Below, one piece after another: positions 8,764-9,967 of a stretch of DNA of 64,000 nt. A program made the translations under genes and the position numbers. This DNA comes from an uncultured Arcobacteraceae bacterium (GTDB lineage Bacteria; Campylobacterota; Campylobacteria; Campylobacterales; Arcobacteraceae): positions 96,001 through 160,000 of the forward strand of contig CAXHZO010000001.1 of assembly GCA_964022095.1 (NCBI GenBank), given 5' to 3'. How positions within the stretch are numbered: position 1 is the first letter of the stretch; every line of letters begins with the position of its first letter. The notes below the pieces were generated by a model. It did not search any database, was not told the origin of the DNA, and saw only the letters and a list, made by a program, of their open reading frames with translations.

Positions 8764-9075
8764 TTATTTTGTAATAGTTATTGATTTAGCAATCATGTTT
8801 TTACCTCTACATCCAGATATTCTAAATACTACATTAGTAGATGCATGGAATGAAGACAAAGATATAGATAAAATTTCATTATACATTTTATTTGTAGGAC
8901 TTACATAGATTCTTGGATTAATGCACCCCTCAACTACAGTAGGATTATCTATAGACAAGAATAAGCCTTCTTCTGCCGCTCCAGTTGCGATATGTTTAAT
9001 AGTTGAGGCAGGTAAGTTTGCATCTGCATTTGAGATACTAAATGCAACAAACATCAACAGTATTAATTTTTTCAT
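8764..9075 (-). CDS. Small secreted protein, putative AB5-B-subunit-like OB fold (B3)
   Basis: MKK signal peptide, 2 Cys, motif ILSISLSSFHASTNVVFRISGC. Confidence 0.6.
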   Translation of the reverse strand: MKKLILLMFVAFSISNADANLPASTIKHIATGAAEEGLFLSIDNPTVVEGCINPRIYVSPTNKMYNEILSISLSSFHASTNVVFRISGCRGKNMIAKSITITK

Positions 9076-9142
9076 CTCTTATTTCCTTATTTTTAAATTT
9101 ATTACTTCTTCTCTTCTTCTACATTTTAATTAGAAAAAGGTG
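9062..9142. repeat. 81-bp direct repeat copy 1 (leader, RBS and first codons of the B3-B4 cassette)
   Basis: Near-identical to 9887..9967 at offset 825. Confidence 0.92.
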
Positions 9143-9158
9143 ACGTTTTTTTAGTTAT

Positions 9159-9180
9159 CGTTATCACCTCGTTATCACCT
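9159..9180. repeat. Tandem 11-bp repeat (cgttatcacct x2) at the cassette junction
   Basis: Direct reading; preceded by partial gttat and followed by gacccctttt. Confidence 0.85.
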
Positions 9181-9244
9181 GACCCCTTTTTTTTAATTTT
9201 TTAAGGTCTTTAAAGAAGGAAATAATCCTACTTTTCAGACTAAA

Positions 9245-9577
9245 TTAATTTAAAGTACTATCTAAAACAACATATGATATTTTACAGCCTTCTGTATTTT
9301 CATATATTCTAATATTTACAACTTTATTTGATAATTGTGCAGACAAAAGCGTGCTATAAATTATATCTGCATTTGGAGTACTCATATCCAAAGTAAAATA
9401 TACACCTGATGTTGGTGTACAATTTGCCAATCTTTCATCCTGCGTTGTACCTACAGATATATTCCCTGTAGTTCTTACATAAAGCTTTTCTATTTTTGCA
9501 AGACATCTATTTGTTGTACAAGATTCTGCAAAACAGAAACTAATAAAAAACACTAATAAAAATAAAATTTTTTTCAT
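9245..9577 (-). CDS. Small secreted protein, putative AB5-B-subunit-like OB fold (B2)
   Basis: Signal peptide, 4 mature Cys; CLAKIE and STLLSAQLSNKVVNIR..C resemble Shiga toxin B CVTGKVE and SLLLSAQITGMTVTIK..C (recalled sequence). Confidence 0.65.
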   Translation of the reverse strand: MKKILFLLVFFISFCFAESCTTNRCLAKIEKLYVRTTGNISVGTTQDERLANCTPTSGVYFTLDMSTPNADIIYSTLLSAQLSNKVVNIRIYENTEGCKISYVVLDSTLN

Positions 9578-9588
9578 ATTATTTCCTT

Positions 9589-9900
9589 TTATTTTTTAAT
9601 TCTAATACCATTTATTTCTGGATAACCACTTGTATTACACAAATAAGACAGAGAAACTTTTTTACCTGCTGTAAATGCAGATAAAGCAAAAGAGATATAT
9701 TTTTCATTATAAGAATCACCTGCTAATAAAAATCTTTTTTTATAGTCTAATTTACTACATTTATGATCTTCGCTAGATACAAGATAAATATCAACAGATT
9801 TTGGCCATATTTTAAGTACTGAAATTTCGCTATAACTATTTGTATTTATAGCCCACAAATTAGCATTTAAAAAAGCTATAATCAAAATTAATTTTTTCAT
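9589..9900 (-). CDS. Small secreted protein, putative AB5-B-subunit-like OB fold (B1)
   Basis: Signal peptide, 2 Cys, motif YISFALSAFTAGKKVSLSYLC. Confidence 0.6.
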   Translation of the reverse strand: MKKLILIIAFLNANLWAINTNSYSEISVLKIWPKSVDIYLVSSEDHKCSKLDYKKRFLLAGDSYNEKYISFALSAFTAGKKVSLSYLCNTSGYPEINGIRIKK

Positions 9901-9967
9901 CTCTTATTTCCTTATTTTTAAATTTATTACTTATACTCTTCTTCTACATTTGAATCAGCGAAAGGTG
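9887..9967. repeat. 81-bp direct repeat copy 2 (leader of the B1-B2 cassette)
   Basis: Near-identical to 9062..9142. Confidence 0.92.

Follow-up and report, generated by a model that had tools for sequence, protein, structure and literature searches.

Toxic tips and immunity genes are known to be reshuffled at polymorphic toxin loci, and the orphan toxin–immunity modules of Rhs and CdiA systems are displaced by recombination at a conserved upstream segment. Tc (ABC) toxins combine an RHS cocoon bearing a variable toxic tip with a separate, multimeric receptor-binding component, and in the arrays of integrons short conserved elements (attC) border cassettes of unrelated content. Here we describe a locus that shares traits with these systems, located in a 64,000-nucleotide stretch of DNA from an uncultured marine Arcobacteraceae bacterium (assembly GCA_964022095.1, contig CAXHZO010000001.1, positions 96,001 to 160,000; hereafter the window, whose own numbering is used for all its positions). 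In it, a repeated leader heads two pairs of small genes, B1–B2 and B3–B4, within the same island as a gene encoding a large Rhs toxin. The explanation that we consider best overall, and rather probable, is that this leader is a composite junction element bordering cassettes of genes for proteins similar to the B subunits of AB5 toxins, placed behind a secreted Rhs toxin and immunity genes.

The two copies of the leader are found on the minus strand, copy A at 9878..9967 and copy B at 9053..9142, each of them comprising a 55-nt core, a ribosome-binding site (RBS), and the first codons of the gene that follows, B1 and B3, respectively. Repeat finding in the window presented them as a 90-nt direct repeat of 89% identity, inside which the near-identical 81-bp repeat reported in the initial annotation was recovered exactly (9887–9967 against 9062–9142, 93% identity over 81 nt; BLAST, E 1.7e-28), including a stretch of 46 bases, ending at ATGAAAAAATTAAT, without a single mismatch. 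A BLAST search with the 90-mer against the whole 2.57-Mb assembly detected these two copies only, both inside the island, the next-best match being of 23 nt (E 0.0165). As had been annotated, and as read from both copies in minus-strand sense, the leader spans about 67 nt of upstream region, an AAGGA RBS, and the first five codons (MKKLI) of B3 or B1; in gene sense, the 3' end of each copy consists of AAGGAAATAAGAG, then ATG, and then the MKKLI codons. DNA similarity between the B1–B2 and B3–B4 units is lost after codon 5–6, with no alignable sequence beyond it, and the high divergence claimed for the genes behind the leaders was also found at the protein level, where BLASTP matches past the signal peptide, or past a single short motif, were not significant (E 0.065 for B1 against B3 and 0.062 for B2 against B4).

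In addition, an extra 8-nt block, GGGGTCAG in gene sense, is located 5' of both leaders at unequal distances, 14 nt from the core of leader A (9982..9989, minus strand, supported by the same box at the junctions of metagenome contigs L127 to L130) and 36 nt from the core of leader B (9179..9186, minus strand, read in the window sequence), so the homologous unit is slightly bigger than the 81 bp first described. The spacer of leader B is 95–100% identical to pieces of L127, L128, and L129. Two tandem 11-nt units (TCGTTATCACC, plus strand) were observed in this spacer at 9158–9179, against a single unit in the same spacer of those three contigs. Judging from its sequence, the leader is a composite of a GGGG(T/A)CAG box, a variable spacer, the 55-nt core (CACCTTT...TTTAAAAA), and a translation start region with the AAGGA RBS, the ATG, and the MKKLI codons. 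An Rfam scan of positions 8000–11200 of the window gave nothing relevant.

Copies of the element in other DNA were sought in public metagenome contigs with a 24-letter pattern taken from the leader-specific 5' part. Five contigs matched, one of them (L126) with just 28 nt in common, and four (L127 to L130) contained the 55-nt core with 88–99% identity to the window, some of them also with the spacer of copy B; viral contigs had zero copies of the core. Six of the eight core copies lie in B-gene arrays of Rhs-locus type. Contig L127 showed a membrane protein gene, two tandem copies of the core, and a gene of B4 type that scored 119 bits with the B4 model and had 44% identity. Behind it, a B2-type gene cut by the end of the contig is headed by the start part only (RBS and MKKLI), 95% identical to its counterpart in the window. 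Contig L129 presented an Rhs tip (48% identical to that of the window across 121 residues), a 104-amino-acid (aa) open reading frame (ORF), a copy of the core, 58 nt from the start of the B4-type gene of L127, a new element copy with box, spacer, and core, and a B gene of a fifth type (53% identity to a B gene of genome G145, a member of the window's family) with another piece of the element 3' of it. Both contigs are 97.8% identical over 183 nt (648–830 in L127, 928–1110 in L129), and similarity stops at the new element, the B4-type gene continuing intact past this breakpoint in L127 and being cut after about codon 19 in L129 by the new element copy. As far as these two sequences tell, the difference between them is a cassette replacement between close relatives, exactly at the element edge. 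It was also observed that positions 3–970 of L129 encode a glycine-rich Rhs junction in common with the Rhs protein of the window followed by a different tip, and that the 104-aa ORF behind it is of non-membrane type; since the tip differs while the junction is shared, both toxin tip and B cassettes vary at this type of locus.

In the two remaining contigs, the core was found with a small membrane protein gene on one side and a DUF4172 gene on the other (L128) and amid unrelated ORFs (L130), and the GGGG(A/T)CA box was present at every such junction. The element is conserved (88–99%) between the window and the metagenome contigs while the genes behind it vary. The search for the leader and the catalogue of what follows it, namely a B4-type gene, a fifth-type gene, a DUF4172 gene, and unrelated DNA, left standing the idea of the initial annotation that the locus reflects exchange rather than simple recent duplication, as the same core precedes different genes in the metagenome contigs and L127 and L129 differ by a replacement. 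The two-gene cassette that it described holds in the window (B1–B2 and B3–B4) but not in L129, where the cassette has one gene. As for the homology-guided acquisition or exchange that it postulated, turnover does occur at the element edges, whereas guidance by homology would follow from the positions of the breakpoints.

The four B genes are all encoded on the minus strand, and they were assigned from their ORFs, their BLAST matches, and the family tree, with a structural model in addition for B1. B1 (9589..9900) encodes a 103-aa protein of the B1 clade with an AB5-B-like oligonucleotide/oligosaccharide-binding (OB) fold; B2 (9245..9577), located 12 nt behind B1, a 110-aa protein of the B2 clade (CxxxxC...KIEKLY type); B3 (8764..9075), a 103-aa protein of the B3 group; and B4 (8416..8754), 10 nt behind B3, a 112-aa protein of the B4 clade, a type also found in the arrays of G145 and G135, a second genome of the window's family. 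As read from the sequence, all four carry a Sec signal peptide (MKK, a hydrophobic stretch, and an A-x-A-like site), leaving mature proteins of about 84–94 aa. Pfam gave no family match for them apart from one weak match of B2 (E 0.04), far under the cut-off, and a word-indexed search found a single relative each for B1 and B2. A family profile built from the four window proteins and these two relatives was run against 1.84 billion representatives, and it recovered 107 proteins at E ≤ 1e-3, nearly all of 95–145 aa, which by best BLAST match were 42 B1-like, 31 B3-like, 17 B4-like, and 17 B2-like.

The B1, B2, and B4 groups each fell on one side of a branch in a tree computed from 88 rows (Shimodaira–Hasegawa-like approximate likelihood-ratio test, 98, 98, and 91, respectively), and the nearest relative of each window protein showed 65–83% identity. 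A free quick tree joined B2 and B3 against B1 and B4 with a support of 97, and trees constrained to B1+B3 or to B1+B2 were each about 70 log-likelihood units better than the free one (approximately unbiased test, p-AU 0.98 and 0.99). Relatives at 30–50% identity were detected in other phyla. The payloads are therefore old paralogues of four types, all from a single family with about 100 representative clusters, not fast-diverging alleles, and the hypervariable payload of the initial annotation has to be abandoned. Few gammaproteobacterial members of the sample were fitted by the subfamily models, which means that the family extends beyond these four types. The nearest named family is DUF5992 (PF19454), with weak matches in 6 of 109 family members (best E 3.1e-4, none over the gathering threshold), yet none of the four window proteins matches it; the neighbours in the protein Atlas were the DUF5992 cluster (score 0.91) and clusters of Shiga toxin B and SubB. 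No paper naming "DUF5992" was found among open-access texts.

Mature B1, the only one of the four proteins that was modelled, was predicted by AlphaFold2 from a 109-row alignment with a mean predicted local distance difference test (pLDDT) of 97 and a predicted template modelling score (pTM) of 0.86, and it consists of strands, a 13-residue helix, and two further strands; an earlier model from 6 sequences had reached a pLDDT of 43. In a VIA-align search with the model, which does not depend on Foldseek, B subunits of AB5 toxins occupied 7 of the 9 best rows. The best match was chain F of pertussis toxin (Z 9.3, root-mean-square deviation 2.2 over 76 residues; Z 9.0 for a second entry), followed by ArtB (8.4), Stx2 B (8.3), cholera toxin B (8.3), LT-IIB (8.0), LT-B (7.9), and PltB (7.6). 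Outside the AB5 toxins, pro-protein-glutaminase was matched with Z 8.3, and ordinary DNA-binding OB folds remained below 7. The top rows of a Foldseek search of the PDB were a chain of the pertussis B oligomer, a cholera-toxin-like B subunit of Citrobacter (template modelling score, 0.68–0.70), LT-B, LT-IIB, cholera toxin B, ArtB, and Stx2 B.

A profile search of PDB sequences returned Shiga toxin B chains first, below threshold (E 0.15–0.34), with an alignment that covers the helix, the following strand, and a cysteine. Among the 109 family members, the curated B-subunit models LT-IIB, StxB_1e, and StxB_1c matched one protein each (0.0098, 0.0055, and 0.0088, respectively), all under their cut-offs, and the four window proteins showed no match to the B-subunit models of Pfam and NCBIfam. 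According to the structural model, the B proteins are thus of the B-subunit fold class (OB fold with a central helix) and not of any curated B-subunit family. The putative receptor-binding role given to them at first sight fits this predicted fold, modelled for B1. A prediction of a B1+B2 complex gave a score of 0.02, which counts neither for nor against binding.

The B genes and the Rhs toxin gene are part of a 10-kb island (8240..18321) that is lacking from a genome of the same genus (G001), in which the flanks of the island are directly joined, the rhodanese gene and the next gene abutting with an overlap of about 9 nt. The GC content of the island is unremarkable, and no integrase-like ORF was found in it from the ORF list and Pfam. 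At its left edge, a terminator scan and the genome comparison located a two-way terminator hairpin (8240..8265) that closes both the B array and the convergent rhodanese gene. Directly behind the stop of B4, three colinear blocks (8272..8413, minus strand) correspond to a decayed 3' fragment of a B2-like gene, 74–76% identical to the middle of B2 and to the end of B2 with its downstream hairpin. The fragment lacks the start as well as an internal portion, deleted between two CAAAT repeats, so an older B2-like gene was cut here.

The Rhs toxin itself (11113..17838, minus strand, from ORF and Pfam) has 2241 aa, with a signal peptide seen as a hydrophobic N-terminal leader, both FG-GAP and RHS repeats, and a glycine-rich tip matching DUF4225. 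From its position, the 89-aa membrane protein encoded at 10851..11120 (minus strand) is probably its immunity protein. An orphan Rhs C-terminal module follows (10322..10783, minus strand, within a span of 10322–10794), recognised as a repeat of the main rhs gene, as its first 157 nt repeat, with 95% identity, positions 11492–11648, which immediately precede the variable tip in the main rhs gene. Next to it, a 105-aa membrane protein (10004..10321, minus strand) would be the immunity protein of the orphan tip, according to its position and to matches that are weak and of membrane-protein type only. This orphan tip with its immunity gene, directly upstream of the B genes, and the B2-like remnant behind B4 bear out the analogy with orphan modules drawn in the initial annotation. 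The only RHS gene of the genome is found 1.2 kb from its only four B-family genes, and an orthologous secretin is encoded on contig C24 of the same genome, 64% identical to the one beside the module of G135.

At the other end of the island, a divergent gene (17951..18334, plus strand) encodes a 127-aa protein and is kept beside the Rhs gene in three genera. These proteins, of 127–130 aa, show an N-terminal membrane anchor and a charged, lysine- and glutamate-rich, coiled-coil-like tail, with no Pfam match; the counterparts at 18584–18970 of the G145 locus (L053) and 17906–18298 of the G135 locus (L054) have 41–44% identity and are divergently transcribed.

The B family is rare in the phylum of the window. 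Within the window's family, matches to it at E ≤ 0.01 were detected in 5 of 183 other genomes, two of them weak and broken by stops, and at the level of the phylum in 1 of 400 genomes. In G145, the anchor gene is accompanied by a gene for a 2148-aa FG-GAP/RHS protein, by five B-like genes, and, downstream of these, by a further RHS gene of teneurin-like type. The product of the latter, a giant protein at 2841–9578 of L053, shows PKD, teneurin-like NHL/TTR, and YD-shell domains and precedes a Sel1-repeat protein. In G135, the anchor gene and two B-like genes are located on one side, and the other side has an RHS protein 51% identical to that of the window, an ORF of 164 aa, three further B-like genes, and a complete type II secretion cluster. 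This cluster (58–9327 of L054) encodes GspG, pseudopilins, GspF, GspD, and GspE and lies directly behind the B-like genes.

A motif scan of species genomes pointed to three places, of which L052 was a chance match, and in the other two, L050 and L051, the B-like genes touch RHS genes. In L050, the B-like gene is upstream of and overlaps an RHS gene with a PKD end; in L051, the RHS gene is followed by two B-like genes, and no toxin-tip domain was found by Pfam in the RHS proteins of either locus. The first B-like protein of L051 is 97% identical to a protein of Stenotrophomonas maltophilia, and its RHS/B stretch is GC-rich; other genes of L051 (mreB, csrD-like) look enterobacterial, judged from their translations without a family search. 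L051 could thus correspond either to a recent transfer or to a chimeric bin.

The sizes of the two B-like genes of L051 match those of ORF2 and ORF3 of Bcn-A, an RHS bacteriocin of Xanthomonas perforans that, in the portion of the report drawn on here, is found in the supernatant and depends for its activity on xpsD, a type II secretion gene (PMC7259588). According to the same portion, ORF2 (124 aa) is needed and ORF3 (100 aa) is helpful for killing, and neither of them gives immunity (PMC7259588). The 3' end of the L051 RHS gene encodes the same six residues as the 3' primer for bcnA, with 15 of 19 bases identical and the four differences synonymous, and the other primers of PMC7259588 had no match on L051 at ≤3 mismatches. 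Through L051 alone, we infer that ORF2 and ORF3 of Bcn-A may be homologues of the B-like family.

In an even sample of 400 gammaproteobacterial genomes, 19 contained the family, and 24 loci were fetched from 18 of them, the one left aside being flagged as unpublished. An RHS protein was encoded in the fetched stretch of six loci, and three more had either an SpvB fragment accompanied by an ankyrin protein or a protein of FG-GAP or CdiA type. In two genomes (G693 and G642), the sole RHS locus is the one adjoining the B-like gene. In a high-GC gammaproteobacterium (G890), an SpvB-domain fragment and an ankyrin-repeat protein are encoded directly upstream of three tandem B-like genes (L105, 8747–11594), in what looks like the remains of a Tc/Rhs-type toxin locus. 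The family of genome G574 had B-family matches in 3 of 400 genomes, all low-GC and with no RHS gene nearby. Further searches for related loci (alignment A7, genome contigs; P0006, metagenome contigs) gave nothing.

Several observations weigh against a junction element that borders cassettes of B-subunit-like genes tied to an Rhs toxin. The element was absent from the 60 related species genomes searched, in which the matches to the 90-mer corresponded to the RBS and MKKL part only, before unrelated secreted proteins, so this part is a near-generic strong start region. The comparison between contigs comprises only four short metagenome contigs, and in two of them, L128 and L130, the core adjoins genes other than B genes. 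Folding of both leaders gave no shared, conserved, or unusually stable RNA structure, and a consensus scan detected no sigma-70-like promoter in the leader, which is weak evidence, as the promoters of this phylum differ; the same scan found no terminator between B2 and B3. If the relatives with 65–83% identity come from one organism, the four-gene set would have been stable over that distance. Regarding the fold, VIA-align Z values of 8–9 are just modestly above the background stated for the tool, and the Foldseek E-values are weak, 5e-3 or weaker, none of them ≤0.001. No gene for an A subunit (ADP-ribosyltransferase, RNA N-glycosidase, or subtilase) was found by Pfam among the ORFs of the island, every one of which was accounted for. 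Finally, 15 of the 24 gammaproteobacterial loci have no polymorphic-toxin gene in the fetched stretch, their neighbours being unrelated and mostly housekeeping genes, so the family does not strictly depend on RHS; the link between B-like and RHS genes is strong, not obligatory.

The repeat could also have arisen by local duplication or gene conversion, the leader having been copied once within the locus and being kept alike by shared expression needs, with no exchange. The existence of just two copies in the genome, both heading complete genes with the same RBS, would agree with this, as would the resemblance of the RBS/MKKL part to start regions that related genera have for unrelated secreted proteins and the finding of relatives of all four genes at 65–83% identity. 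However, the core precedes other genes in four contigs with 88–99% identity, a replacement separates L127 from L129, a displaced B2-like remnant lies behind B4, and the clades of B1 and B3 are far older than a non-coding stretch with 93% identity could be, all of which makes such a duplication quite unlikely. Even less probable, and in our opinion improbable, is that the core represents a small mobile or repetitive intergenic element, similar to miniature inverted-repeat transposable elements or repetitive extragenic palindromes, with GGGGACAGG as its target duplication or its end and with an incidental position next to B genes. The tandem core of L127, the unrelated genes beside the core in L128 and L130, and the GGGG(A/T)CAGG box on both sides of the core in L127 and L129 are what such an element might produce; against it, this complete-quality genome has two copies, both in the island, and none were found in the 60 related genomes or in viral contigs, six of the eight core copies sit in B-gene arrays of Rhs-locus type, and no terminal inverted repeat or transposase was seen.

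With respect to the proteins, the B-like genes might encode periplasmic immunity proteins and constitute the multi-immunity array of a polymorphic toxin locus, which we consider unlikely. They are located downstream of toxin genes as arrays of divergent paralogues with signal peptides, and they appear also singly elsewhere, all of these being traits typical of immunity families in polymorphic toxin systems, according to the part of PMC3482391 used here. Nevertheless, small membrane proteins that would suit a membrane-acting tip occupy the place immediately behind each Rhs tip, main and orphan, the B-like gene of L050 is upstream of its RHS gene, the RHS proteins of L050 and L051 lack a Pfam toxin tip, and both fold and sequence motif point to B subunits; the small ORFs of Bcn-A, needed for killing and giving no immunity in the section of PMC7259588 consulted, would argue in the same sense through their putative homology to the B family. 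A role as free-standing secreted lectins or adhesins, similar to orphan B subunits and merely sharing a variable island with the Rhs gene, seems rather unlikely too. The 15 of 24 gammaproteobacterial loci without a toxin gene nearby would fit such a role, and orphan B subunits without an A subunit are known from the parts of two papers cited here (PMC9120245, PMC6695444), but adjacency to RHS genes recurs in three genera of the family and in unrelated Gammaproteobacteria, including genomes with a single RHS locus.

Returning to the junction element as a border of B cassettes, the repeated element would act as a homology arm at which ordinary recombination adds, replaces, or truncates cassettes, as the positions of the breakpoints suggest for a homology-guided process, and the same process would have made the neighbouring orphan Rhs tip and left the B2-like remnant at the far end. 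The element would also provide the RBS and start codon, and a promoter within it is possible. With less confidence, we propose that the B-like proteins may form rings, possibly mixed, that bind a surface receptor or glycan of the target cell, and that these rings could be targeting or delivery partners of the Rhs protein after its export by Sec and type II secretion; the best support for this role from outside the locus comes from Bcn-A, and the turnover of cassettes would then shift what the toxin is aimed at. Taken as a whole, a Sec- and type II-secreted Rhs cocoon aimed by a ring of lectins similar to AB5-type B subunits, whose cassettes are swapped at a dedicated junction element and diversify the binding end, is a tentative picture that we regard as possible though doubtful.

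In the open-access literature, we found no description of the shuffling of a separate set of B-subunit-like accessory proteins, and no paper in which partners resembling B subunits are linked to RHS proteins. More broadly, the analysis points to an uncharacterised family of B-subunit-like proteins that is associated with secreted RHS toxins and undergoes shuffling at a junction element, the latter being a compact natural cassette border with its own translation start. Should the partnership between B-like and RHS proteins be true, it would explain the small ORFs required by RHS bacteriocins such as Bcn-A, give a testable role to an uncharacterised family of about 100 clusters, and connect two large classes of toxins, AB5 and Rhs/Tc. 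Likewise, if toxins are re-equipped by swaps of B cassettes, diversification would take place at the binding end, matching that known for toxic tips.

Compared with the orphan Rhs and CdiA modules, the locus shows the same conserved segment before each module, the abrupt loss of homology, the displaced modules or remnants downstream, and the location in a toxin island. In contrast to them, the conserved segment of the window is non-coding DNA with a start codon, outside the toxin reading frame, and the payload is an accessory B-subunit-like protein instead of a toxin tip with its immunity gene. Moreover, whereas orphan Rhs and CdiA modules have no start and are silent until recombined, both cassettes of the window retain the full start, RBS and ATG, and can therefore still be expressed, only the B2-like remnant being without a start. 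With integron cassettes, the locus shares a short element bordering cassettes of differing content, but it has neither an integrase nor attC-like inverted repeats, and its element is placed on the 5' side, carries the RBS and start codon, and is present in a handful of copies.

The B proteins resemble, in the predicted structure, the B subunits of AB5 toxins (cholera toxin and LT, LT-II, Shiga toxin, S2–S5 of pertussis toxin, SubB, ArtB, and PltB) in being small, Sec-exported, and of OB fold with a central helix. With the B subunit of Shiga toxin, they share a helix–strand–cysteine motif, from a profile match below threshold, and several paralogues are present side by side, as in pertussis toxin with its mixed B ring and in the PltBd1/PltBd2 entry. 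Some B subunits of this group, for instance PltC and YpeB, are alternate or orphan ones, and alternate B subunits gained by transfer are known. Unlike in AB5 toxins, the B genes adjoin an RHS gene, no gene for an A subunit is present, and no curated B-subunit model matched over its threshold.

As in Bcn-A, which in the portion of PMC7259588 drawn on combines an RHS toxin with a Sec signal, type II secretion, small ORFs, and a membrane immunity protein, the window has an Rhs protein with a Sec signal and a secretin encoded in the genome; that portion describes no repeated junction element for the Bcn-A locus, which differs in this from the window. The likeness to Tc toxins consists of an RHS protein with a variable tip plus a proposed separate binding component, and the difference of the lack of a TcA gene and of an evident translocation channel, the proposed partners being OB-fold proteins of 85 residues. 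In conclusion, the window locus would be a variant of the polymorphic-toxin locus organisation, and, if the targeting by a ring of B-like proteins is true, which we hold to be a conceivable but uncertain outcome, it would represent a toxin architecture so far undescribed.

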